Shown here: piece after piece, positions 1-14,337 of the stretch
How positions within the stretch are numbered: position 1 is the stretch's first letter
Layout of the letters: each line of letters starts with the position of its first letter
From: a virus
Taxonomy: Duplodnaviria > Heunggongvirae > Uroviricota > Caudoviricetes
Length of the DNA: 36,646 bases
Strand: one strand, 5' to 3'
IMG/VR virus record: IMGVR_UViG_2548876701_000024
The notes under the pieces: generated by a model
Seen by the model: only the letters and a program-made list of their open reading frames with translations
Database searches by the model: none
What the model was told of the DNA's origin: nothing
Made by a program: the position numbers and the translations under genes

Positions 1-1053
1 TTACGGGGTAATGCCAACCGCTGCCGCCACTTTGTCGCCACTTGGCAGCGTTGCCAGAGGATTGAAACGGAGCGCCGTTTCCAGATGATCCGGTGCCAGA
101 TGTGCGTAACGCATAGTCATTTTTATATCGTGGTGTCCGAGAATTTTTTGTAAGGCCAGAATGTTTCCACCCGACATCATGAAGTGCGCCGCAAACGTAT
201 GGCGCAGAACGTGTGTGAGTTGACCGCGAGGGAGCACGATAGACGTTTTTTCCATCACGGATAAAAATTGAAAATAGCAGTCTGTGAAGAAATTGAACCC
301 ATCAAGCGCCATGATCTCTTCGTAAAGCTCTTTACTGATAGGGATGCTTCTGTTTTTCTTCCCCTTCGTTCTGACAAAGGTAATTCGGTATTTGGTCACC
401 TGTGAGCGGGTAAGATTTACGGCTTCACGCCAGCGTGCGCCTGTGCTTAAGCATATCTTAACTACCAGTGCCAGAATTGGGTCCTGACGTTTGCAATCAG
501 CCAGCAATTCAACAATCTGCTCATGGGTAAGCCATGCCATCTCTTTTTCTGCGATGGTGAATTTTCGCATGTTCTCCAGTGGGTTCGGATACGACCATTC
601 GCCCAGACGGGATAGTTCGCTAAAAACACTACTTAGATAGCTTTGCTCCAGGTTAATGGTGACCGGGCTTGCTCCTTTCTTCCATTTCTCGCTGAAGTAG
701 ATCTCGCCTGTCAGGCGTTTATCTCGATAGTGGGCAAACATTTTAGAGGTGAGATCGGTTGCAAGAGGATTGCCTAGAGCGTCAACCATCAGCAGCAATT
801 TGTCATAGACATGCTGTCCAGCAGTCAGAGATTTACCATGTAGTTTGAACCATAGCTCAACCACGTCTTTCAGGGTTCGACGATCCACTGATTCGCCCAG
901 CCAGGGCTTTGATTCGGTTTCTTCCATCGTGTGGCGCTCAAAAGCCAGAGCTTCGCCTTTGGTGGCGAATTGTTTACGCACACGACGCCCACTTCGTCCG
1001 GCGGGGTAACATTCGCAAAGCCATTTCCCTGTGGTGAGTTTTCGTACTGCCAT
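1..1053 (-). CDS. int: Tyrosine integrase, P2/186 family
   Basis: ORF translation has tyrosine-recombinase C-terminal motifs (ARW.EA, HVLRHTFA, MRYAHL); start taken at the internal ATG (1051..1053) preceded by GGAGGG, where the protein begins MAVRKLTTG like P2 Int; stop at 1..3. Confidence 0.9.
   Translation of the reverse strand: MAVRKLTTGKWLCECYPAGRSGRRVRKQFATKGEALAFERHTMEETESKPWLGESVDRRTLKDVVELWFKLHGKSLTAGQHVYDKLLLMVDALGNPLATDLTSKMFAHYRDKRLTGEIYFSEKWKKGASPVTINLEQSYLSSVFSELSRLGEWSYPNPLENMRKFTIAEKEMAWLTHEQIVELLADCKRQDPILALVVKICLSTGARWREAVNLTRSQVTKYRITFVRTKGKKNRSIPISKELYEEIMALDGFNFFTDCYFQFLSVMEKTSIVLPRGQLTHVLRHTFAAHFMMSGGNILALQKILGHHDIKMTMRYAHLAPDHLETALRFNPLATLPSGDKVAAAVGITP
19..40. repeat. 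attL core candidate (CGCTGCCGCCACTTTGTCGCCA)
   Basis: 22-bp sequence repeated with one mismatch at 33792..33813; lies inside the 3' end of int, as expected for an att core next to the integrase. Confidence 0.6.
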
Positions 1054-1241
1054 AAAAAATGCCCTCCAGTAGAGAGCATTTTTACTGTATGTATAACCAG
1101 TGTCAATGTATGAAATCCTACGACCATACATCTCACTGAAGCCATAATGAAGTTGGCTATTCTTTTTGCTATGTGAGCATGTAACTTTTGCGGTTAACCT
1201 GCGGCTCATTTTTATTTTAGACGCAGATATAAAAACAAAAG

Positions 1242-1448: not shown

Positions 1449-2018
1449 CTATTTAACATACTTGACTGTTAAACTTATAATTTTACCAATTATTTCAATG
1501 TCTTCTATCTTGCATTCGAAGGCTCTGTTTCCACCCTCGACGAAGATTCTTCCACCGGGTAAACGAGTAATGTCACGGATCGTTATTTCGCCATCAATAC
1601 TTATTACCCATTTACCATCACGTATATCATCAAATTCTTTATCACAAATAAATTCAGAATTGTTATCTGTGATGACAAAAGGTTTTTTAAACGTAGAGGG
1701 TAGAAATCCCTTATCAAAAATATAAAAACCGTCTTTCTGCAATGCTCCATCAGACAATAAATATTTTTCTACTTCTATAGTATTTGTATTTGCTGATGCT
1801 TGCTTTGAACCATGCCCTGTTGTTAGCCAATTAAGCGAGGTGCCCGTTTCAAGGGCGCACTGGATTACCCAATCTGCTGGAAAAATATCACGCATATAGC
1901 GCGTTGCCATGGTGCTCTTAGAAACACCTAAATGATCACAGAGAGCCTGACGAGTACCGAACCCATATGCTTCAACTAAACGTTCTATGGCTTTCTTACC
2001 GCCGCTATTGAAATCCAC
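1449..2018 (-). CDS. cI: Phage 186 CI-like immunity repressor
   Basis: HTH-like N-terminal region; lysogenic-strand position upstream of int; start placed at in-frame GTG (2016..2018) after GGAGGA, giving 189 aa; the longest ORF would run to 2105 but would cover the predicted pR promoter. Confidence 0.7.
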   Translation of the reverse strand: MDFNSGGKKAIERLVEAYGFGTRQALCDHLGVSKSTMATRYMRDIFPADWVIQCALETGTSLNWLTTGHGSKQASANTNTIEVEKYLLSDGALQKDGFYIFDKGFLPSTFKKPFVITDNNSEFICDKEFDDIRDGKWVISIDGEITIRDITRLPGGRIFVEGGNRAFECKIEDIEIIGKIISLTVKYVK

Positions 2019-2045
2019 AAGTCCTCCAAAGAAATCCAAAATTCG

Positions 2046-2074
2046 TTGACAGATTCCAAAAGCGATCTTAAAGT
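2046..2074 (+). promoter_or_regulatory. Candidate rightward lytic promoter pR (TTGACA-17-TAAAGT)
   Basis: Consensus -35 hexamer and 17-bp spacer read directly from sequence, upstream of apl; position fits the 186-type switch. Confidence 0.35.
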
Positions 2075-2163
2075 TGAACCAGAAGTGTTCTTTTGGAGCC
2101 TTCACTACTAATCACGACAAACAACGGCTCGCCACAAGCCATATCTAGAAGGAATGTTGCCTT

Positions 2164-4005: not shown

Positions 4006-4232
4006 TGGCTGATGCAATGGATCTCGTACAGCAGCGCGTTGAAGAAGAACGCCAGCGCCATATCCGTGCTGCCCGTGCCAAAACACCGGGCGTGTCTCGC
4101 GTGCTTTGCATTGAATGTGAAGCGCCAATTCCGCCAGCACGCCGCCGCGCCATTCCAGGAGTGCAGCTTTGCATTACCTGTCAGGAAATCGCAGAGCTGA
4201 AAGGCAAACATTACAACGGAGGTGCTGTATGA
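4005..4232 (+). CDS. TraR/DksA-family C4 zinc-finger protein
   Basis: CxxC...CxxC motif (CIECEA...CITCQ) in a 75-aa protein; typical position in the P2-like early operon. Confidence 0.75.
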
Positions 4233-4531
4233 CAGGGGCTGTGCGTATCCATCAATTAAAAATTGCACCTAAGTATTTCAACGCTGTGGTTGCAGGTCAA
4301 AAGACGGCTGAACTTCGTAAAGACGATCGTGGCTATAAAGTTGGTGATGTTCTTTCTCTTTGCGAATGGAAGCATGGCGTATTTACGGGTAGGGAATGGG
4401 CCGCGGTTATCTCTCATGTGCTTCCGGTTAATGACGTCATGGCAGTTTCAGAACAATGGGTGATGCTATCAATTCGCTCATTAACCCCATTAGAAGCTTT
4501 AGGATATGTTATTGCAGGAGGTGCTGTATGA
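4229..4531 (+). CDS. Hypothetical early protein (100 aa), possibly ASCH/DUF3850-like
   Basis: ATG overlaps upstream stop (ATGA) with GGAGGTG Shine-Dalgarno. Confidence 0.55.
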
Positions 4532-5385
4532 GCACCATCCTGAAATGGGCGGGTAATAAAACCACCATTATGTCCGAACTGAAAAAATACCTTCCTGCTG
4601 GCACGCGACTGGTTGAACCTTTCGCGGGTTCTTGTGCTGTGATGATGGAGACGGATTACCCCAGCTATCTGGTTGCGGATATTAATCCTGATTTAATCAA
4701 CCTCTATAAAAAGGTTGCTGCTGATTGTGAGGCGTTTATATCTCGTGCCAGAGCTTTATTTGAGGAAGCAAACAGAGAGGTGGCTTATTACAACATAAGG
4801 CAGGAGTTTAATTACTCCACTGAAATTACTGATTTCATGAAAGCGGTATATTTTTTGTACCTCAATCGTCATGGTTACCGTGGGCTATGTCGCTATAACA
4901 AGAGCGGGTATTTCAACATTCCCTACGGTAATTATAAAAATCCGTATTTCCCTGAAAAAGAAATTCGCGCATTTGCAGAGAAAGCCCAGCGGGCAACGTT
5001 TATCTGCGCCAGCTTTGATGAAACGCTGGCGATGTTGAAGGCGGGGGATGTGGTGTATTGCGATCCGCCTTATGACGGTACGTTTTCCGGCTATCACACT
5101 GATGGCTTCACTGAAGATGACCAGTATCACCTGGCATCCGTTCTTGAACATCGATCATCTGAAGGTCATCCGGTCATTGTTTCTAACAGTGACACATCCC
5201 TGATCCGTTCGCTGTATCGCAATTTTACTCACCACTACATCAAGGCAAAACGCAGCATCGGCGTGGCAGCTGGTGAGAGTAAATCTGCAACAGAAATCAT
5301 CGCTGTTTCCGGGCCGCGCTGCTGGGTAGGATTTGAACCTTCGCGTGGCGTGGATTGTTCCGTCGTGTACGGAGTGCGTGCATGA
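4528..5385 (+). CDS. dam: DNA adenine methyltransferase (Dam-like, N6-adenine MTase)
   Basis: DPPY catalytic motif ([10 protein letters not shown]) and N-terminal AdoMet-binding region (LKWAGNK...EPFAGS). Confidence 0.85.
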
Positions 5386-7796
5386 GCCATGCTGATATGA
5401 ACAACTGCAGCGGCTTTAACGAGGTCGCCGCAGCATTCTCATGGAACAGCCCGAAAAAGGCCATTAACCCTTATCTGGACCCGGCGGAAGTTGCGCCGGT
5501 TTCTGCGCTTTCAAACCTGATCACTCTGTACGCTGCCGATAACGAGCAGGAACAACTGCGCCGCGAGGCACTGAGTGATCAGGTCTGGGAGCGTTATTTC
5601 TTTAATGAATCCCGTGATCCTGTCCAGCGCGAAATGGAGCAGGATAAGCTAATTAGCCGGGCAAAGCTGGCGCATGAGCAGCAGCGTTTTAATCCAGACA
5701 TGGCCATTCTGGCGGACGTCAACGCCCAGCCTTCCCATATCAGCAAGCCGCTGATGCAACGTATTAAATACTTCAGCAGCCTGGGCAGGCCAAAGGCTTA
5801 TTCCCGCTATTTGCGTGAGACGATTAAGCCATGCTTGGAACGACTGGAGCATGTACGCGACAGTCAGCTATCCACTTCTTTTCGCTTTATGGCAAGCCAT
5901 GAAGGGCTGGACGGCCTGCTGATCCTGCCTGAAATGAGTCAGGATCAGGTGAAACGCCTGTCCACCTTGGTAGCTGCGCATATGAGCATGTGCCTTGATA
6001 CAGCTTGTGGCGATTTGTATGCCACCGATGATGTTACGCCAGAAGAAATCCGCAAGACATGGGAAAAGGTGGCAGCGGAAACCCTGCGTCTGGATGTTAT
6101 CCCGCCTGCGTTTGAGCAACTCCGTCGGAAAAGAAACCGCCGTAAACCCGTGCCTTATGAACTCATTCCGGGTTCGCTGGCGCGTATGTTATGCGCCGAC
6201 TGGTGGTATCGGAAATTATGGAAGATGCGTTGCGAATGGCGGGAAGAGCAGTTGCGTGCTGTTTGCCTGGTCAGCAAAAAAGCATCTCCCTATGTCAGCT
6301 ATGAAGCCGTGATGCATAAACGTGAGCAGCGCCGTAAGTCGCTGGAGTTTTTCCGTTCTCATGAACTGGTGAACGAAGACGGCGACACGCTGGATATGGA
6401 AGACGTGGTAAACGCCAGCAGCAGCAACCCTGCGCATCGCCGCAATGAGATGATGGCCTGTGTTAAAGGTCTGGAGCTTATCGCGGAAATGCGTGGTGAC
6501 TGCGCCGTTTTCTACACCATCACCTGTCCGTCACGTTTCCATTCCACGCTAAATAACGGCAGGCCCAACCCGACCTGGACAAATGCGACGGTAAGACAAA
6601 GCAGTGATTATCTGGTCGGTATGTTTGCTGCATTTCGTAAGGCGATGCACAAAGCCGGATTACGCTGGTATGGCGTGCGGGTGGCTGAGCCGCATCATGA
6701 CGGTACAGTTCACTGGCACCTGTTGTGTTTTATGCGCAAAAAAGATCGCCGCGCCATTACTGCTTTGTTGCGTAAGTTTGCCATTCGTGAAGACCGCGAG
6801 GAGCTGGGTAATAACACGGAACCACGCTTTAAGTCTGAGCTGATAAACCCGCGCAAAGGTACGCCAACAAGCTACATCGCGAAATACATCAGTAAGAACA
6901 TTGACGGGCGTGGTCTGGCTGGCGAGATCAGCAAGGAAACGGGTAAATCCCTGCGTGATAACGCCGAATACGTTAATGCCTGGGCGTCTCTGCATCGTGT
7001 TCAGCAATTCCGCTTCTTTGGCATTCCGGGGCGTCAGGCTTACCGTGAACTGCGATTGCTGGCTGGTCAGGCGGCAAGGCAACAGGGGGACAAAAAAGCA
7101 GGTGCGCCGGTACTGGATAACCCGCGCCTTGATGCCATCCTGGCTGCCGCTGATGCTGGCTGTTTTGCCACCTACATCATGAAGCAGGGCGGCGTACTGG
7201 TTCCCCGCAAATATCACCTCATCAGAACCGCTTATGAAATCAACGAAGAGCCGACCGCCTATGGCGATCACGGTATTCGTGTTTATGGCATCTGGTCACC
7301 CATTGCAGAGGGCAAGATCTGCACTCATGCGGTGAAGTGGAAAATGGTTCGTAAGGCCGTTGACATTCAGGAGGCGGCAGCCGACCAGGGCGCTTGCGCC
7401 CCTTGGACTCGTGGCAATAACTGTCCCCTTGCTGAAAATTTGTACCAACAAGGGAAAGACAAATCAGCTGATGGGGATACCAGAACGGATATCACCCGTA
7501 TGGATGACAAGGAGTTGCACGATTACCTGCACAGTATGAACAAAAAAGAGCGCCGGGAACTGGCTGTAAGGTTACGCCTGGTGAAACCGAAACGGCGTAG
7601 AGACTACAAACAGCGAATTACAGACCATCAACGACAGCAGCTCGTCTATGAACTGAAGTCCAGAGGATTTGATGGCAGCGAGAAAGAGGTCGATTTACTC
7701 CTTCGCGGCGGCAGCATTCCGTCAGGAGCAGGCCTGCGTATCTTCTATCGGAACCAGCGTTTGCAGGAAGATGATAAGTGGCGGAACCTGTATTAA
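5382..7796 (+). CDS. A: Replication initiation endonuclease gpA (rolling-circle, P2 A family)
   Basis: ~800-aa protein in the canonical position after the early operon; start ATG overlaps dam stop (ATGA); fits P2 gpA in size and placement. Confidence 0.85.
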
Positions 7797-7890
7797 TTAC
7801 GCGGGTTAACAATTCGTGCTCTTAATAATACCAGGCATATCAGGCTGATGAACGTAAAAAAACGTTTTACATCAGTAAGATTATTATATG

Positions 7891-7906
7891 CTGTAAATAT
7901 AAACAG
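7891..7906. promoter_or_regulatory. LexA (SOS) box CTGTAAATATAAACAG
   Basis: Perfect CTGT-N8-ACAG SOS-box consensus read directly from sequence, immediately upstream of the tum-like ORFs. Confidence 0.7.
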
Positions 7907-7949
7907 TGGTTATGCATGCAGTATTGCTTGTGGTGTCATAGGAGGAAAG

Positions 7950-8138
7950 ATGCAGGACTATTTTTTGGAGTCTTTGAAGCTCCAGCGCATTGATTTTTTT
8001 CTTAAGCTTGTAGCGGCTAGTGAGTGTAGTGATGAAGAGAAGGGGCTGGCCCTGCAGTGGGTTTCTGAACTAACAGATGAACTCATAGCAAAAATCAGAA
8101 GCCACGAATACAACCGCTCAATGGATGTCATCAGCTGA
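7950..8138 (+). CDS. Small protein, possible N-terminal part of Tum-like antirepressor
   Basis: ATG with AGGAGG Shine-Dalgarno just downstream of the LexA box; the longer listed ORF (from 7848) would span the LexA box and promoter. Confidence 0.5.
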   Translation: MQDYFLESLKLQRIDFFLKLVAASECSDEEKGLALQWVSELTDELIAKIRSHEYNRSMDVIS

Positions 8139-8148
8139 GGGGACTTTT

Positions 8149-8382
8149 ATGCGCATTGAAATAATGATCGATAAAGAGCAGAAGATTAGCCAGTCTACCT
8201 TGGACGCCCTTGAATCCGAGCTTTACCGCAATCTGCGCCCCCTGTATCCCAAAACGGTAATTCGTATCCGTAAAGGTAGCTCTAACGGTGTGGAACTAAC
8301 CGGATTGCAACTGGACGAAGAAAGAAAACAAGTGATGAAAATTATGCAGAAGGTGTGGGAAGACGACAGCTGGCTGCATTAA
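8149..8382 (+). CDS. DinI-family protein (Tum C-terminal-like, SOS-inducible)
   Basis: Begins MRIEIMIDK and ends ...KVWEDDSWLH, paralleling E. coli DinI (MRIEVTIAK...ETWESADDWF); under the LexA box. Confidence 0.75.
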   Translation: MRIEIMIDKEQKISQSTLDALESELYRNLRPLYPKTVIRIRKGSSNGVELTGLQLDEERKQVMKIMQKVWEDDSWLH

Positions 8383-8652
8383 GAAACGTTGCTGGCGTCT
8401 GAACTTGCTTCTGGCGTCAGCAAGGTTGAACAACGAGCTATGCGTGGCGTTAGTGTCAATTTGTTACCTTAACCACTATATATGCCAGGAAATTAACAGT
8501 TCTTAAGAAACCGCTTGCATGATCGAGCGCATTGAACTTAAGTTTAAGTAACGAAATCAACAGATGATATTGTTGTCTAAATTTTAAAGATAATCTGTTG
8601 AGGTTGTAGGCGTCGGAGTGTAGACTTCCGCGCCATGTGAAAAGGGGGAGTT

Positions 8653-8868
8653 ATGTCAAGCATCGCCGCATTTAGCCTGGGTAACCCAGTTGAACGTCTG
8701 GCAAGGGTTCTTAAAGAGAACCAGGACAAACTCAATCTTAGTAAAGATGGTTTTGTGTCCGTAGACTTGTCTAACAAAAGAGCAATGGATGCCATCAAGG
8801 CACAGATGGATAAGCTTGAAGGCATCAAAACGAGCACTGTAAAAGAGAAAACTAATAGAACCAGATAA
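8653..8868 (+). CDS. Hypothetical small hydrophilic protein (71 aa), first gene of a two-gene cargo operon
   Basis: ATG with AAGGGGGAG Shine-Dalgarno; stop overlaps start of next gene (TAATG). Confidence 0.55.
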   Translation: MSSIAAFSLGNPVERLARVLKENQDKLNLSKDGFVSVDLSNKRAMDAIKAQMDKLEGIKTSTVKEKTNRTR

Positions 8869-9710
8869 TGGCAACATTACTTTTAGCAGTGATTTTGGTT
8901 AGTGGTTTTATTTATGTAAACCTATCACTTTCAACAAGATACCGATATAAGCGTTCCAACGGCTGGGACGCTTATTTTTTTGTGGCTGCCTGGGGTATCG
9001 TTTTTTTTCTCCTTGGCGGTTTTTTCACCTTTATTTTGAACGTCAGCGGAGGGTTTCGTTGGCTGGCTAATGCCTTGAATCTAACACCTGACAGTTTTAA
9101 TGGCATGTTGTCTTCATCGAAAGACAAACTTCAAAGAATAAATGAAATCAAACAGATAGCATGGGTTATGATTTCAATTGTCCTCGCTGCGATTTCAGGT
9201 TTTGGAAATAAGTTACGCACATCACGTGGAGATCGTCGCTGGGATGCCTTAGCTAAAGCTGTGGGTAATAACGCTTTCGAATCATTACTCATGGAAGCGT
9301 CCGCAAGACAGTTTCCGATCATAGCAACTCTGTCGTCTCGCAAAATCTATGTTGGTCTTGTTACTTGTCCGGCGTTAGAAAACGGGCTTTCAGAACACCT
9401 TGAACTTCTCCCGATGTTAAGCGGATATCGGGATAAAGATGATCTAACGATTAGTATCACGACTAACTATCACCAACATTATCTTGATAGTGGTGTGATA
9501 AGTGGAATGTCTCGGCTTAATATCGAAGATTTCCGTGTGCTCATACCAAAAGATGAGGTTGAAACAATTTCGTTTTTTGATACTGAGACATATAACAAAT
9601 TTAAAGAAAATGAAGCCAGGGATAGAAAGAGCTGTCGAAAGATTGGTAGTAAAAGTGCATCTTCGCGCAGCAAGCGTGCAGCAGATGCTGAGTCAAATGA
9701 TCGTGCATGA
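8868..9710 (+). CDS. Hypothetical membrane protein (280 aa), three predicted N-terminal TM helices plus soluble C-terminal domain
   Basis: Hydrophobic stretches at about residues 3-20, 35-57 and 96-112; translationally coupled to the upstream ORF; in the gpA-to-cos variable region. Confidence 0.65.
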   Translation: MATLLLAVILVSGFIYVNLSLSTRYRYKRSNGWDAYFFVAAWGIVFFLLGGFFTFILNVSGGFRWLANALNLTPDSFNGMLSSSKDKLQRINEIKQIAWVMISIVLAAISGFGNKLRTSRGDRRWDALAKAVGNNAFESLLMEASARQFPIIATLSSRKIYVGLVTCPALENGLSEHLELLPMLSGYRDKDDLTISITTNYHQHYLDSGVISGMSRLNIEDFRVLIPKDEVETISFFDTETYNKFKENEARDRKSCRKIGSKSASSRSKRAADAESNDRA

Positions 9711-9758
9711 CTATGCTGCATGAGATCGCATGATCGTTTGAGGATCGTTTTTGCTAAG

Positions 9759-9783
9759 GCCCGCCAGAACTGGCGGGCTTTTG
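9759..9783 (+). terminator. Rho-independent terminator
   Basis: GCCCGCCA/TGGCGGGC 8-bp GC stem, 4-nt loop, followed by TTTT. Confidence 0.6.
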
Positions 9784-9827
9784 CGTAGATCATGCACCTG
9801 CATGAAAACTACTACATAAAGTGGGCA

Positions 9828-9846
9828 GGCGTGGCGGGGATACGAG
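9828..9846. other. cos-like cohesive-end site (GGCGTGGCGGGGATACGAG)
   Basis: Close match to the P2 cohesive-end sequence as I recall it (GGCGAGGCGGGGAAAGCAC), with a following GCGCGCTG at the same offset as in P2. Confidence 0.5.
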
Positions 9847-10050
9847 CGCGCGCTGCTATATTGCGTAGAGCCTTTACGTAAGCATTAGTAATGTTGACTC
9901 AGATAGAAAACGAATCGAACATTGAACGCTATTAAATGAATAAATGTGTGAAAGAAGAAACTACTATCAATTGCGTTCTCCTGTTTGAAAAGGTTAAAAT
10001 TTAAAAAATTAAAATTTCATCCTGACAGATTAATTTAAAAGGGCATTCAT

Positions 10051-11346
10051 ATGAATGAAGAATTTCAAAAAACGATTAACTCATTATATAGCTTAAAAAA
10101 AGCTGTTGAAAAAGTGGCTACTGACGAAACTAACCTTTCGGATGTGAAAGGTGTTAAAGCTCCTGCTTTATATCCTGTTGATTTTCTAGATATGATTGGT
10201 TTTATAATAAGAAAAATAGAAAAATATGGTGAAGTGGAATTAACGGATGATGAGATTTCTGAACTGAGTTTTTTACCGATTAGAATTGATAATATTAAAG
10301 AAAATATAGTTCCACATCTCTTTGGAAATAACTCGTCTGATGCTATTTCATCATTTGTTGAAACTATTGCGTTTATTACTCAGTATTTAGATGACATTTT
10401 CTCTTTAGAACGACTGGATAATGCTAATCTTCTGCCGAGAAATATGACAAGAAAAATAAAAAGCATGGAGGCTAGGTTAAATAAAGCAGCCCCTGATATA
10501 GAATCATTGGAAAATAAGATAAATAAAATAAATGATGCTCATGTTGCGGCTGAAAACATTCCTATCGATTTGGAGGAATTACGCTCTTATAATAAGGAAG
10601 CTATGGAGTTAAAAGAAAAGATTAATAAATCAATGTTTAATCTTAGTGTCTTAGAAGAAAAAGGACGTGATATTTTAGATAAAATGACACAACAAAATGT
10701 CGAAGCAGCAAAATATCTCGAAATGTGTGAGCAGGCTATTAGAGCATCGACATCTAAAGGTTTAGCCGGTGCTTTTGAAATCAAGGCTAATAAATTAAAT
10801 AATAGTATCCAACTATGGGTTTTGGGATTGGCAAGTGCACTGGCGACGGGGGGATACGTGGGTTTTGAAAGGCTCAAGGTTTTATCTGATGTGCTAAACA
10901 ATGCAAATCCAAATGCAGTAGTTATTGTTACTCAGTTACTTCTTTCAGTGTTCAGTATAGGAGCTCCGTTATGGTTTGCATGGCTCTCTACAAAACAAAT
11001 AAATCAAAGATTTAAATTGGCAGAGGATTATGCTTTTAAGGCTTCAGTAGCGAAGGCTTACGAAGGCTATCGAAATGAAGCAAGTAAGGTATCTAATGGA
11101 GAATTTGAAAGGCGTTTATTTGATTCGGCATTGAGTCGTCTCGAAGAAGCACCTTTGCGCTTTGTGAAGGATGATGACCATGCAACCCCTTGGAATGAGT
11201 TGTTAAATTCGAAAGCATTCAATAAGTTCCTTGACGCTTCTGTTGAAAATGTGAATTTTGTTAAAGGGATTATTAGCAAGAAAACAGGTGGGGCGAGAAT
11301 GGCTAGTAATGATTCGGCTATTATTCCAGAAAAAAAAGTTGAATGA
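10051..11346 (+). CDS. Hypothetical 431-aa protein; coiled-coil-rich N-terminal region, two predicted TM helices (about residues 253-272 and 288-311), C-terminal soluble domain
   Basis: Long ORF in a strongly AT-rich segment unlike the phage backbone; hydrophobic helices evident in the translation; between cos and portal gene Q. Confidence 0.7.
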   Translation: MNEEFQKTINSLYSLKKAVEKVATDETNLSDVKGVKAPALYPVDFLDMIGFIIRKIEKYGEVELTDDEISELSFLPIRIDNIKENIVPHLFGNNSSDAISSFVETIAFITQYLDDIFSLERLDNANLLPRNMTRKIKSMEARLNKAAPDIESLENKINKINDAHVAAENIPIDLEELRSYNKEAMELKEKINKSMFNLSVLEEKGRDILDKMTQQNVEAAKYLEMCEQAIRASTSKGLAGAFEIKANKLNNSIQLWVLGLASALATGGYVGFERLKVLSDVLNNANPNAVVIVTQLLLSVFSIGAPLWFAWLSTKQINQRFKLAEDYAFKASVAKAYEGYRNEASKVSNGEFERRLFDSALSRLEEAPLRFVKDDDHATPWNELLNSKAFNKFLDASVENVNFVKGIISKKTGGARMASNDSAIIPEKKVE

Positions 11347-11503
11347 CAGAAGGATAATAATTAAGGGATGTCAGTCAACATGGTAATTTCTTGGTGTTGA
11401 TTGTTTTATTTATCAAAAACATTTTAAGTTAGTCTGATCTTCGCGTTCGGTAGGATCAGACTATTAGATTAACGATATGATTTCATTGATTACGAATGGT
11501 TAA

Positions 11504-12574
11504 TTAAGTTGTAGGGATAGTAATCGAAAGATTACTATCTTCAATACCTAGTTTATAAGGCTCAAACATAATTACTTCTTCTCCAAGCCACTCGTTAAGC
11601 TCTGTCATTCGTTTTTGTAGCGGGGTCAACTCATTGCGCACAAAGACTTTACTAGCTTTACCTGCATCTCCAAAACCGCCGATGTTCTGGGGAATTATCC
11701 CCATCATTTGCGGCGGCACACGGTGTGCCGCCATCATGTCGTCCCGGCTCACGTTCTTGATATTCAGAAACTCATCCTTCGCCGCGACTTCTGACAATGG
11801 GATGATCTGAAGCCCGTCTTTTTTACCGTTAGGCGAGTACATAAACAGGTTACGGAAGTTACCAGGACCTTTGGCACTTTTCATCGCGTTGCGGAGGTTG
11901 TTCACATCCTCCTGATTCTGCGCGGCATCGGTCATGTACATGATGAAGCCTGCATGGCTGCCGTTGATGTAATACTTACGGCGGAACAGTGTGGCGGACT
12001 CGTTGAGCAGGGCTGACGGAATGGCAGAAAGATAACCGGGCAGGCCGTAGATCTCCTGGTTGATGTCCGGTTCCATCAGATGAAAAATGCTGCCTTTCGT
12101 GAACTGATACGGCTGCGTAGTCATGCCGTATTGCACAAACCAGTAGGTATCCAGGTCTAATCCGCGTCGGGTGTATTTTGCCAGCGCAGGCTCAAGAGCG
12201 ATGACCTCTCCGAAGCGGTTCGTGCGTTTTTCCAGGTAGGCGTTACCAAAAACCAGATAGTCCTGCACAAAACGCGAAAAAGCCTGCTGGCTGAGCAGCG
12301 GGTGAGGGATGTAGGTGCTGGTCAGAATGTTGCATTTCACTGCGATCGGTGAGCTGTGGTGTACGGCAGCGCGGAATGTTCGCGCCAGTCCGTCAAAACT
12401 TACGGGAGGCTCATACCAGCGATCCGTCTGTACGCATTCCACATAGTCCAGCAGTTCGCGGCGGTCCAGTACAGGAATGGGATCGCCAAAGCTGAATGCT
12501 TCGGCTGAAGTCTGGCTTTTATGCTGGGTCTGGTTCTGTGACGCAGCGCGGTTCTTCTTACTCTTTCCCATCAA
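11504..12574 (-). CDS. Q: Portal protein gpQ
   Basis: Synteny (divergent from O, downstream of P) and size. Confidence 0.88.
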   Translation of the reverse strand: MMGKSKKNRAASQNQTQHKSQTSAEAFSFGDPIPVLDRRELLDYVECVQTDRWYEPPVSFDGLARTFRAAVHHSSPIAVKCNILTSTYIPHPLLSQQAFSRFVQDYLVFGNAYLEKRTNRFGEVIALEPALAKYTRRGLDLDTYWFVQYGMTTQPYQFTKGSIFHLMEPDINQEIYGLPGYLSAIPSALLNESATLFRRKYYINGSHAGFIMYMTDAAQNQEDVNNLRNAMKSAKGPGNFRNLFMYSPNGKKDGLQIIPLSEVAAKDEFLNIKNVSRDDMMAAHRVPPQMMGIIPQNIGGFGDAGKASKVFVRNELTPLQKRMTELNEWLGEEVIMFEPYKLGIEDSNLSITIPTT

Positions 12575-14337
12575 AAAATCTCCACAATATTGCTGGTATT
12601 GGCGGATTCGCCCTGCAGCGGTTCGTTAAACAGTGCGTGCATCGTTGCCCAGGCCAGATCGGCGTGGCTGGCTTCTTCGCTGCGGCTGGCTTCATAGGTC
12701 GGGCGGTTGCCGCTGGCGGTGGTGGCGCGACGGATTGCCATGAATGACTGCGCAATGTCGGTGTGCCCGGCGTCAAACTCCAGACGGCGGTGGCTGATAA
12801 TGTCGTAGGCCTTGAGTACCAGGGCGTTTTTAACGTTGGGGTTGTAGACAAACTCCCGGACGGCAGGAAAGAACGCTTTCACGTTCTCATAAACTCCGTG
12901 ACCGACACCTGTCGAGTCGATGCCGATATATGTCACGTTGTACTGTTCGGTCAGTTTTTTGATGGCGTCAGCCTGGGCGCGGAAGTCCATCCCGCGCCAC
13001 TGGTGACGCTCAAGAATGCGGAACTTACCGCCCGGCACGGCTGGCGGTGCCACCACCACGCACCCGGCGCTGTCGCCGTTCTGCGTACCTTTTGCCGGGT
13101 CATAACCGATCCACACCTCGCGCCAGCCAAACGGGCGCAGCGCCAGTGCATGAAAGTCGGTCCAGACTTCCCAGCTGTCCACCATGCACGCCTGCAGCTC
13201 GCTGAGCGGAAACACGGACGCGAGATCGTCCACAAACTCGCACATCAGCAGGTTCTGGTATTCGTCCGGGCTGTACTCCATGCGCAACTGGTCAAGGTCG
13301 AATAGATTACAGCCGCCGCGCACCGCATCTTCCACGGTGACTATCTGGCGGTACTGCCCGTCTGCGCACAGCAGGCCGGGGGCCAGATTGCTGTGGGACA
13401 GGTCGATGTCCACCTTATCGGCTTTGTTGCGCCCTCGGTTGAACAGCGCACCGGACCAGAACGGATAAGCACTGTGGGTCAGACTGGATGGTGTGGAAAA
13501 ATATGTCTGCCGCCATTTCTTGTGAATAGCCATACCGGAAGCCACTTTGCGTAGCTCCTGAAATTTCGGTATCCAGAAATATTCATCCAGATACAGGTTG
13601 CCGTGATAACTCTGGGCCGTGCGGGCATTGGTGCCGAGGAAGTAAAGCGTGGCCCCGTTAGGAAGCACCATCGGATCGCCTTTCAGCTCCACCTCCACTT
13701 CTTTGGCGAAGTCGATGATGTACTGCTTAAAGACGTGGGCCTGTGCCTTACTGGCGGAAAGGAAAATCTGGTTACGTCCGGTTAGCAGGGCGTCAATCAG
13801 GGCTTCACGGGCAAAATAGAAGGTCGCGCCGATCTGGCGTGACTTCAGCAGGTTGCGGATGCGGTTGGTTTTTCCTGCTTCCCACCAGTGGCGCTGGTAG
13901 TTGAACATGGAGGAATGGAAGATTTCTTCCAGCTTCTCAATCTGTTCATCGGTGAAAACATTCTTTTCCGGCTGACGGCGCGGGCCTTTGTTGCGGTTGG
14001 CGACGTTAGGGTTTAAGTCGGCTTCGTTACCGCCATTGTTAAACTTGCCGATGCGCGCGTGGCGCTCCGACTGGCGCGCCAGCAGGTCAATCTCTTTGAA
14101 ATCTTTCCCTTCTTTGTGCTCCTTCATAATGAGCTGGCAGTAGCGTGCGGCGGTGGTGAGCTGCATCTGATCCAGCGGCCCGTAGTCACCCCACTTGTCG
14201 CGTTTTTTCCAGCTGTGAACGGTTGCAACTTTCTCGCCCAGCATTTCAGCAATGCGGGCTACGCGGTATCCCTGAAAGTACAGCAGCATGGCCTGCCGAC
14301 GGGGATCGAGATCTGCGGGTATCAGTGTGGTGTTCAT
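12571..14337 (-). CDS. P: Terminase large (ATPase) subunit gpP
   Basis: 588-aa protein, size and position as in P2; overlaps Q start. Confidence 0.9.
   Translation of the reverse strand: MNTTLIPADLDPRRQAMLLYFQGYRVARIAEMLGEKVATVHSWKKRDKWGDYGPLDQMQLTTAARYCQLIMKEHKEGKDFKEIDLLARQSERHARIGKFNNGGNEADLNPNVANRNKGPRRQPEKNVFTDEQIEKLEEIFHSSMFNYQRHWWEAGKTNRIRNLLKSRQIGATFYFAREALIDALLTGRNQIFLSASKAQAHVFKQYIIDFAKEVEVELKGDPMVLPNGATLYFLGTNARTAQSYHGNLYLDEYFWIPKFQELRKVASGMAIHKKWRQTYFSTPSSLTHSAYPFWSGALFNRGRNKADKVDIDLSHSNLAPGLLCADGQYRQIVTVEDAVRGGCNLFDLDQLRMEYSPDEYQNLLMCEFVDDLASVFPLSELQACMVDSWEVWTDFHALALRPFGWREVWIGYDPAKGTQNGDSAGCVVVAPPAVPGGKFRILERHQWRGMDFRAQADAIKKLTEQYNVTYIGIDSTGVGHGVYENVKAFFPAVREFVYNPNVKNALVLKAYDIISHRRLEFDAGHTDIAQSFMAIRRATTASGNRPTYEASRSEEASHADLAWATMHALFNEPLQGESANTSNIVEIF

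Follow-up and report, generated by a model that had tools for sequence, protein, structure and literature searches.

The gpA-Q interval of a 186/Fels-2-like Escherichia coli prophage: a probable P2-family accessory hotspot with uncharacterised cargo on both sides of cos

Introduction

The DNA analysed here (hereafter the window) is a stretch of 36,646 nt, read 5' to 3', from the viral record IMGVR_UViG_2548876701_000024, and it looks like a complete P2-family prophage in E. coli. One question raised by this prophage is what fills the interval at positions 7797-11503, which extends exactly from the stop codon of the replication gene gpA to the stop codon of the portal gene Q, how many independently acquired pieces of DNA it contains, and whether these protect the lysogen against other phages. 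An earlier interpretation made from the letters alone (the sequence-only reading) had proposed that a LexA-controlled tum/DinI-like region, a two-gene membrane operon and an AT-rich gene for a protein of 431 amino acids (aa) form three cargo blocks, with a terminator and the cos site between the second and the third. All these elements were found between gpA and Q, although not all of them turned out to be cargo. We conclude, with a probability of roughly 80%, that the interval is the known accessory and defence hotspot that P2-family phages carry next to cos, here in a 186/Fels-2-like, SOS-inducible E. coli prophage, and that it has four parts: an SOS induction module (7797-8453), a cassette with a gene pair (cassette 2, 8454-9702), a conserved terminator and cos core (9703-9853) and an AT-rich cassette that encodes the 431-aa protein (cassette 3, 9854 to about 11540).

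Results and Discussion

The interval coincides with a published hotspot

The interval is flanked by the replication endonuclease gene gpA (5355-7796, plus strand, stop at 7796) and by the portal gene Q (11504-12574, minus strand, end of the stop codon at 11504), next to which lies the terminase gene P (12571-14337, minus strand). Q and P are homologous to those of P2 and 186, the 3' end of gpA is homologous to that of Klebsiella phage ST15-OXA48phi14.1, and the flanking genes of the relatives are annotated as 'replication endonuclease' and 'phage portal protein'. The integrase gene is located at 1-1209 (minus strand), and the right flank, with an ogr-like gene followed by grxA, ybjM and ybjL, is 99.9% identical to E. 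coli chromosomes. In addition to its flanking genes, the interval has the cos site (9828-9846) inside it, and its gene content is variable among syntenic prophages, with seven occupants between cos and Q and five states of the slot on the gpA side (A side) among the relatives examined.

A hotspot between gpA and gpQ, proximal to cos, was described by Rousset et al. (2022; PMC9122126), who counted 1,650 arrangements of genes among 18,150 E. coli loci, and was confirmed by Moura de Sousa et al. (2026; PMC13586616). According to these papers, more than one system is present in many of the loci, certain systems are found in several P2 hotspots, and non-defence cargo, such as partition systems and the cytolethal distending toxin, occurs as well. 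The interval shares with the published hotspot the flanking core genes, the adjacency to cos, the high turnover of gene content, the short systems of 1-3 genes and the frequent presence of multiple systems per locus. It differs in the resolution of the map, since neither paper, in the passages searched, splits the locus at a cos core or maps breakpoints. The locus table of PMC9122126 includes the 62-aa, DinI, 71-aa and 280-aa proteins described below, with varying partners; the cargo proteins of the window are not among the tested systems described in the section of that paper that was searched. The hotspot itself is thus already published, and what is new here is the uncharacterised cargo and a finer map only.

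Four junctions delimit the parts of the interval

The interval was compared by blastn with P2, 186, the Klebsiella phages ST15-OXA48phi14.1 and 4LV2017, the Escherichia phage 500465-1 and three E. coli prophages. Four sharp junctions were obtained, at 8453, 9702/9703, 9853-9855 and about 11540. In relatives without the gene pair, homology extends from gpA to 8453 (500465-1) or to 8380 (4LV2017) and is back at 9702/9703. Homology to all the relatives ends at 9853-9855, which is 7-9 bases beyond the 19-nt cohesive end and just after the motif GCGCGC(T), and it returns at 11540-11628, depending on the relative, the nearest point (11540) being inside Q. The guanine plus cytosine (G+C) content is 0.53 in gpA, 0.44 in the SOS block, 0.407 in cassette 2, 0.543 in the cos core, 0.337 in cassette 3 and 0.517 in the rest of Q, against 0.53-0.57 in the backbone. 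The compositional shifts noticed in the sequence-only reading are therefore real, and composition across the interval is not uniform.

Neither P2 nor 186 has the same gene content as the window. In P2 the space from A to cos is taken by orf91, tin and old; these genes are unrelated to those of the window and in the opposite orientation, and P2 lacks the LexA/tum module. In 186, p95-tum-t95a-orf97-t95b occupies the A side and no gene is present between cos and the portal gene, where the window carries the 431-aa gene. The distance from cos to the portal stop is 167 bp in P2 and about 170 bp in 186, with the portal terminator in this space, but 1,657 bp in the window. A scan of positions 7700-11700 against Rfam gave one sub-threshold chance match (mir-553).

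The terminator and cos core form a proposed fixed anchor

The two cassettes are separated by 151 bp (9703-9853, plus strand) that are conserved at 92-99% identity in E. coli and Klebsiella relatives, whatever the flanks. The first element of this core is a Rho-independent terminator at 9753-9784 (plus strand; stem GCCCGCCAG/CUGGCGGGC followed by UUUU; -23.4 kcal/mol, z-score -4.9), which closes the A-side transcription unit. It was missed by a consensus promoter/terminator scan that returned fewer sites than shuffled sequence; its T-run has only four T. The second element is the 19-nt, G+C-rich cohesive-end sequence GGCGTGGCGGGGATACGAG at 9828-9846 (plus strand), which was located by alignment with cosL/cosR of P2 and with cos of 186. 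It is identical to the 186 cohesive end at 15 of 19 positions (counted by hand) and its flanks are conserved, with 92 bp (9762-9853) at 78% identity to the 186 cos region. The core is identical in phage Cartapus, whose record starts at this point with the annotation 'putative cos', and in Klebsiella relatives. On the basis of these alignments, 9828-9846 is assigned as a P2/186-type cos site, where cleavage is predicted to occur.

It had been suggested from the letters that cargo on both sides of cos would place one module at each end of the packaged genome. This follows from the position of cos, and the layout of the Cartapus record agrees with it: its left end is followed after 162 bp by a DUF4145 gene, and its right end holds A, the 62-aa gene, dinI and two small genes.

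The record of phage ST15-OXA48phi14.1 contains an annotated 69-aa open reading frame (ORF) across the cos core (5943-6152 of locus L001, with the cos motif at 6051). It lacks conservation in the window, and its annotation is probably an artefact.

Independent assortment of cassettes 2 and 3

An A-side block 99% identical to that of the window was found together with three kinds of Q side, namely a SieB-family gene (L006), an empty slot (L007) and a pair of hypothetical genes (L008), and an 82%-identical block is accompanied by a bSEFIR protein (E 7e-103) in a Klebsiella phage. Other relatives keep the SOS module, lack the gene pair and carry on the Q side a TIR gene (500465-1), a type II-A retron (4LV2017; NDT, E 2e-54; reverse transcriptase, E 3e-104) or a DUF4145/PD-T7-4-like gene (Cartapus). 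From the other side, E. coli contigs with a near-identical 431-aa gene are of two types on the A side, those that have the 71-aa plus 280-aa gene pair and those that have a DUF8087 gene on the minus strand. The parts of the interval differ widely in frequency among 5,426 complete E. coli genomes, 1,260 of which match it somewhere, in most cases in the SOS module and the cos core. These comparisons show that each of cassettes 2 and 3 assorts independently of the other, in what appear to be two slots split by the cos core. The proposal of separate acquisition events is therefore sustained for these two cassettes, which have sharp breakpoints and assort independently, but not for the SOS block, which is conserved in the lineage.

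We propose that homologous recombination between relatives that reside in or infect the same cell would swap the cassettes, with the gpA/SOS module, the cos core and Q acting as anchors. Terminase would require the cos core in cis, so that the core would not be exchangeable and would persist as a fixed island of homology; for this reason the two sides could be reshuffled independently. An obligatory cos core might in this way split the P2 hotspot into two recombinationally independent slots, and the DNA ends generated at cos might be the reason why the hotspots of both P2 and P4 adjoin it.

The right breakpoint lies within the last ~12 codons of Q rather than at its end. These codons (11504-11540, minus strand) have a G+C content of 0.30 and fall within the variable AT-rich segment. 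When the C-terminal tails of the portal protein (last 10-20 residues) were compared, they differed in length and sequence in all the phages included (8/8), and the window has a unique tail, ...IEDSNLSITIPTT, which is AT-encoded. Judging from these sequences, cassette exchange rewrites the tip of the portal, an essential structural protein.

A different origin of the cos-to-Q segment has to be considered here, namely one illegitimate insertion into an 'empty' site instead of homologous cassette exchange. An empty slot does exist, with only 297 bp from the 280-aa stop to the Q stop in strain TUM1881; the G+C content of the segment (0.34) hints at a foreign origin, and the 431-aa gene family is also present at unrelated chromosomal sites. 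However, the empty-site sequence from 9853 to Q is not alignable to the flanks of the segment in the window, which argues that the whole DNA between the anchors was replaced, including the Q terminator and the last Q codons. Furthermore, inspection of 9854-11540, with no dedicated repeat search, revealed neither a transposase or integrase nor direct repeats at the flanks. A single insertion is thus quite improbable as the source of the present arrangement; an original illegitimate acquisition somewhere in the lineage is possible and would be compatible with a later spread by homologous exchange, which is the explanation we favour.

The SOS block is a probable induction module of the lineage

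The block next to gpA (7797-8453, G+C 0.44, delimited by the blastn breakpoints) had been taken as the first of three cargo blocks, a view that was not upheld. It contains a LexA (SOS) box, CTGTAAATATAAACAG, at 7891-7906 (plus strand), which is the sole perfect match to CTGT-N8-ACAG across the 36.6-kb window. A single perfect match is not significant on its own, with at least one match present in 46 of 100 shuffles; the box was nevertheless accepted because its position and its overlap with the -10 element are those of the LexA site in the annotated p95 promoter of 186 (-10 TACTGT). By analogy with 186, a p95-like SOS promoter is placed at 7866-7894 (plus strand), with TTTACA at -35 (7866-7871), a 17-nt spacer and TGCTGT at -10 (7889-7894) running into the LexA box. 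The consensus promoter scan made no call of this promoter.

Two genes follow the box and the promoter that it overlaps. The first one (7950-8138, plus strand; phrog_698, E 3e-37) encodes a 62-aa protein with 95% identity to its Fels-2 homologue and 89% to that of SopEPhi, and corresponds to the upstream half of a 'split tum'; no alignment with the N-terminal half of 186 Tum was obtained. The second one (8149-8382, plus strand) encodes a DinI-like protein of 77 aa that matches the C-terminal half of 186 Tum. Its membership of the DinI family is clear (PF06183, E 6.6e-23; 81.3 bits against a Pfam gathering cut-off of 24.2), and it is 41% identical to residues 71-145 of 186 Tum. The prophage also encodes a cognate repressor of the non-cleavable 186 CI type (1449-2105, minus strand) with both domains of 186 CI (PF07022, E 3e-31; PF16452, E 5e-29). 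A tum gene split in two was reported in Fels-2 and PSP3 by Lemire et al. (PMC3121763), the upstream gene of PSP3 encoding an antirepressor and the downstream one a DinI homologue. Because the DinI-like part, the Fels-2-type 62-aa gene, the reported split tum and the 186-type CI occur together, the block is best read, from these similarities, as the SOS induction module of the lineage, with a split tum of the Fels-2/PSP3 type, rather than as 186 Tum proper or as cargo. The LexA-repressed p95-like promoter would drive both halves of the split tum, and the 62-aa protein is presumed, by analogy, to be the LexA-controlled antirepressor of the 186-type CI. Each of the seven related arrangements inspected, all with the same prophage backbone, contained the block.

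The SOS operon of 186 (p95-tum-t95a-orf97-t95b-cos) resembles that of the window in the LexA box on the -10 element, the DinI-like coding part, the 186-type CI and the non-essential gene slot downstream, followed by a terminator and cos. A stem-loop located after dinI (8385-8427, plus strand; -23.5 kcal/mol, z-score -3.8) occupies the position of the partial terminator t95a of 186 and has no U-run. The two operons differ in that Tum is encoded by one gene in 186 and by two in the window, and in that the position of orf97 is taken in the window by an unrelated pair of genes.

Cassette 2 encodes a small soluble protein and a membrane protein with an Sm-like domain

Cassette 2 (8454-9702, plus strand, G+C 0.407) fills the slot between dinI and the cos core. 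It is regarded as a discrete cassette because 8453 joins 9703 almost directly in Escherichia phage 500465-1, where it is missing. The same position holds other DNA in Klebsiella phage 4LV2017 and a DUF8087 gene in three E. coli loci (L027, L030 and L031). It comprises a leader and two genes, one for a 71-aa protein (8653-8868, plus strand; phrog_9843, E 1e-36) and one for a 280-aa protein (8868-9710, plus strand), which are translationally coupled, the stop codon of the former overlapping the start codon of the latter. The full-length pair was found in 52 of the 5,426 complete E. coli genomes, and a small ORF also precedes the homologues of the 280-aa gene in Klebsiella, Pectobacterium and Shewanella. 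The 'two-gene membrane operon' of the sequence-only reading was confirmed as regards two overlapping genes, but only the 280-aa product, with three transmembrane (TM)-like segments, is a membrane protein; the 71-aa product has no hydrophobic segment and is a soluble protein.

The 280-aa protein consists of three N-terminal TM helices and a cytoplasmic Sm/LSm-like domain (residues ~136-236), in which an N-terminal helix is followed by a strongly bent five-stranded beta-barrel that can be superposed on LSm/Hfq. The closest known domains are the small beta-barrels of Sm/LSm/Hfq and of WYL. The domain may bind a ligand (RNA, single-stranded DNA or a nucleotide), and binding would be converted into an effect at the membrane. 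The invariant residues of the protein include R188, Y201 and Y205. The family is small, with 57 clusters from Enterobacterales, Aeromonas and Shewanella. A Foldseek search of the model against viral structures gave nothing below E 0.001, and the family profile had no match among PDB sequences. No similarity to Orf97 of 186 was detected, and the shared position is not homology. MscS-type channels are built of three TM helices plus an Sm-like beta domain, and the 280-aa protein was considered as one of them; this identity was rejected, the architecture alone being alike, with no support from MS_channel profiles or from the structural matches listed.

The 270-nt leader upstream of the 71-aa gene (8383-8652) contains the blocks CACTATATATGC and AACTTAAGTTTAAGTAACG...CAACAG, which are conserved in E. 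coli, Klebsiella and Pectobacterium. A TATATA/-10-like element and the sequence downstream of it are conserved in the same three groups, and the leader, for which there was no match in Rfam, could be a promoter plus a structured 5' untranslated region.

The origin of transcription bears on a second explanation, in which the interval would hold two units only. The SOS block and cassette 2 would then constitute one LexA-controlled operon, and the 71-aa and 280-aa genes would be expressed upon DNA damage for induction or exclusion during the lytic switch, not as a constitutive defence. The layout of 186 is the same, with p95, tum, the partial terminator t95a, orf97 (described as 'expression from plasmid blocks 186 infection'), t95b and cos in this order. 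Moreover, the sole clear Rho-independent terminator on the A side comes after the 280-aa gene, the stem-loop after dinI lacking a U-run, and a Pectobacterium islet of three genes, located next to a tRNA gene and outside any prophage, unites dinI and homologues of the pair behind a perfect LexA box. However, cassette 2 is swapped or missing in relatives in which the SOS block remains, the Shewanella homologue of the 280-aa gene has no dinI neighbour, the conserved -10-like element in the leader suggests that cassette 2 has its own promoter, and the 71-aa gene is not preceded by a LexA box of its own. A common SOS operon is, on balance, the less likely arrangement, and cassette 2 is treated below as a unit separate from the SOS module.

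Two further observations were made on the homologues of these proteins. The Pectobacterium islet (L023/L024, 4319-5819) begins directly after the 3' end of the tRNA, is flanked by metabolic genes outside any prophage and consists of the LexA box TACTGTTTATTTATACAGTA, dinI, a 65-aa gene and a gene whose 272-aa product is homologous to the 280-aa protein; this islet would be a domesticated remnant or else an SOS unit that works autonomously. The 71-aa protein is labelled 'multidrug ABC transporter ATPase' in many NCBI records, which looks like a propagated misannotation, implausible for 71 residues with no family match.

Cassette 3 encodes a coiled-coil protein of a widespread family

Cassette 3 (9854 to ~11540, plus strand, G+C 0.337) occupies the slot between cos and Q and consists of an AT-rich promoter region, the 431-aa gene, terminators and the last codons of Q. 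The gene (10051-11346, plus strand; phrog_34659, E 2e-187) has a G+C content of 0.346, which decreases to 0.257 at third codon positions. A hairpin followed by a U-rich tract (11372-11403, plus strand; -12.1 kcal/mol, z-score -3.1) is its probable terminator. Another hairpin, 3' of Q (11430-11463, minus strand; -13.3 kcal/mol, z-score -3.4), has the same relative position as tQ of P2 and tW of 186 and is probably the tQ equivalent, on cassette DNA. No nucleotide match to 9854-11540 was found in the 5,426 complete E. coli genomes at megablast sensitivity; the exact protein is present in draft E. coli assemblies.

Gamma- and Betaproteobacteria contain at least 1,494 homologues of ~430 aa, which are called hypothetical except for a few generic or automatic labels ('coiled-coil domain-containing protein'). 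Several of them are located in mobile elements. A 65%-identical homologue lies in the other P2 hotspot, between the tail-fibre assembly and sheath genes; the Kosakonia homologue is part of a P2-like prophage, with the replication gene on one side and ogr/portal on the other; that of Yersinia is in a P4-like element, adjoining an OLD-family ATPase and a RelE/MqsA pair; and that of Stenotrophomonas is in an integrative mobilisable element. The 431-aa protein had no Pfam match at the gathering score (the sub-threshold ones were weak and mostly of coiled-coil type) and none in PADLOC or NCBIfam, and the family profile gave only weak coiled-coil matches against the PDB. PF28231, which is listed for one distant homologue, was not reproduced in the Pfam search. 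The accessions looked up for the family were not found in the DefensePredictor supplements.

The AlphaFold model of the 431-aa protein (predicted local distance difference test score, pLDDT, of 72) shows a helical N-terminal domain (residues 1-116, confident), a long coiled coil, a hairpin formed through the hydrophobic segments 253-271 (moderate) and 289-307 (strong), and a C-terminal region of lower confidence. Conservation is inverse to the confidence of the model: identity to distant members is 23% in the N-terminal domain and 57% in the TM plus C-terminal module, where most of the invariant residues are located. The invariant positions of this module read E-D-Y...K...A-Y-E-G-Y...P-L-R...P-W-E and include E325, D326, Y327, K330 and Y337-Y340. 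Immune sensors typically show this pattern of a variable N-terminal domain joined to a conserved effector-like module. From the architecture and the conservation pattern we hypothesise that the fast-evolving cytoplasmic N-terminal domain would sense infection and that the protein would then act at the inner membrane through the conserved TM hairpin and C-terminal module, in a way similar to abortive infection (Abi).

Membrane-anchored Abi and superinfection-exclusion proteins, such as the SieB-family protein found in the same slot in strain DETEC-P881, have in common with the 431-aa protein that they are stand-alone products of prophage genes, mostly cytoplasmic, with an anchor of one or two TM segments. 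The likeness is architectural only, and no sequence or profile similarity to the known families of this kind was found in Pfam, PADLOC or NCBIfam. SLATT-type effectors are two-TM proteins as well, to which the 431-aa protein may be likened in architecture.

In Shigella sonnei and some E. coli, the homologue at the Z/fun position is present as fragments of 216 aa and 174 aa (P0135 and P0136, in the cluster of P0006), each of them in more than 300 contigs, which suggests a widespread pseudogenised copy.

Is the cargo anti-phage?

Both cassettes would be expressed from the prophage and would protect the lysogen by anti-phage or superinfection-exclusion functions: slot 1, between dinI and the cos core, through the translationally coupled genes of the soluble 71-aa and membrane 280-aa proteins, and slot 2, which extends from cos to the 3' tip of Q, through a stand-alone, AT-rich gene that has a promoter region and a terminator of its own and encodes a membrane-anchored coiled-coil protein. 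For the pair, a close relative of the 280-aa protein, WP_000212611, encoded by the same gene in DNA 99% identical to the A-side block of the window, is listed in DefensePredictor Table S5 as 'Predicted novel defense gene' with a log-odds of 5.1, above the stringent cut-off of 4. For the 431-aa gene the evidence is positional and is suggestive, not conclusive. That at least one of the cassettes is anti-phage is nearly an even bet, and the chances are somewhat lower for the 431-aa gene alone. It is at a similar, tentative level that we regard the latter as a widespread and unrecognised single-gene anti-phage system, in which a helical sensor and a coiled coil on a TM hairpin/C-terminal module would produce abortive infection or exclusion at the inner membrane, and which would shuttle among P2 hotspots, P4-like satellites and other mobile elements.

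Several points weigh against these proposals. No homology ties either cassette to phage defence: PADLOC 2.0 profiles gave no family at E up to 0.1 for the 62-, 77-, 71-, 280- and 431-aa proteins, and DinI was the sole match when these five products were scanned with Pfam, NCBIfam and PADLOC. The overall validation rate of DefensePredictor was 45%, and WP_000212611 was absent from the DefensePredictor supplementary files searched, aside from the prediction list in Table S5. The single LexA-boxed unit of Pectobacterium means, by analogy, that cassette 2 may be functionally tied to the SOS module. As for the 431-aa protein, its model has a predicted template modelling score (pTM) of 0.33 and gave generic coiled-coil matches only in the fold search, its first hydrophobic helix is moderate (Kyte-Doolittle 1.3), which leaves the topology of the hairpin uncertain, and its distant homologues, as in Luteimonas, Pseudomonas, Thiothrix and a metagenome contig, are often surrounded by housekeeping genes and lack neighbours related to mobility or defence. 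Exchange by recombination at the anchors, in turn, is deduced from the breakpoints.

Some of these points also favour a third explanation, according to which the cargo consists of lysogenic-conversion or phage-physiology genes (membrane or envelope modification, stress tolerance, or control of lysis or DNA entry for the phage itself) at a permissive site. The hotspot is known to hold non-defence cargo (PMC9122126), the other hotspot of the same prophage carries an acyltransferase gene (PF01757), the cargo proteins have no defence homology in PADLOC 2.0, and distant 431-aa homologues lie among housekeeping genes. On the other hand, in sibling phages the same cos-Q slot is filled by defence systems that have been validated (bSEFIR, type II-A retron); hotspots of the P2 and P4 types repeatedly contain the 431-aa family, which also adjoins an OLD-family ATPase and a toxin-antitoxin pair; its variable N-terminal domain and conserved effector-like module follow the pattern known from immune sensors; and the 280-aa protein was flagged by DefensePredictor. 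We therefore consider a purely non-defensive cargo a less probable explanation, which nonetheless deserves attention, and retain protection of the lysogen as the working proposal.

The map in base pairs of the SOS module, the two slots and the 151-bp cos core would explain how several systems accumulate and are reshuffled at one locus, and it offers precise anchors for the mining of cargo, with the right junction in the last codons of the portal gene. It also provides two candidates that can be cloned, the unannotated 431-aa family, found in every type of P2/P4 hotspot, and the 71-aa plus 280-aa pair, of which the larger product, with its three TM helices and Sm-like domain, is flagged by a machine-learning predictor. 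If either of them protects against phage, it would represent a new membrane-acting defence family.

Other variable regions of the prophage

The second P2 hotspot of the window, at the Z/fun position between the tail-fibre assembly gene G and the sheath gene FI (24921-26644), is also occupied by AT-rich foreign DNA, with a G+C content of 0.37. Its gene at 25189-26322 (minus strand) encodes a 377-aa acyltransferase (PF01757, E 2e-26). This class of genes is linked to surface modification, and the one present here is possibly a surface-modification or lysogenic-conversion gene.

Upstream of gpA, the region at 4169-5385 contains an ORF for a Dam-type methylase (4456-5385). In the relatives the content of this region varies, with a DNA adenine methylase and in some cases DUF3850, and the region from integrase to primase is described as a minor P2 hotspot in PMC13586616.

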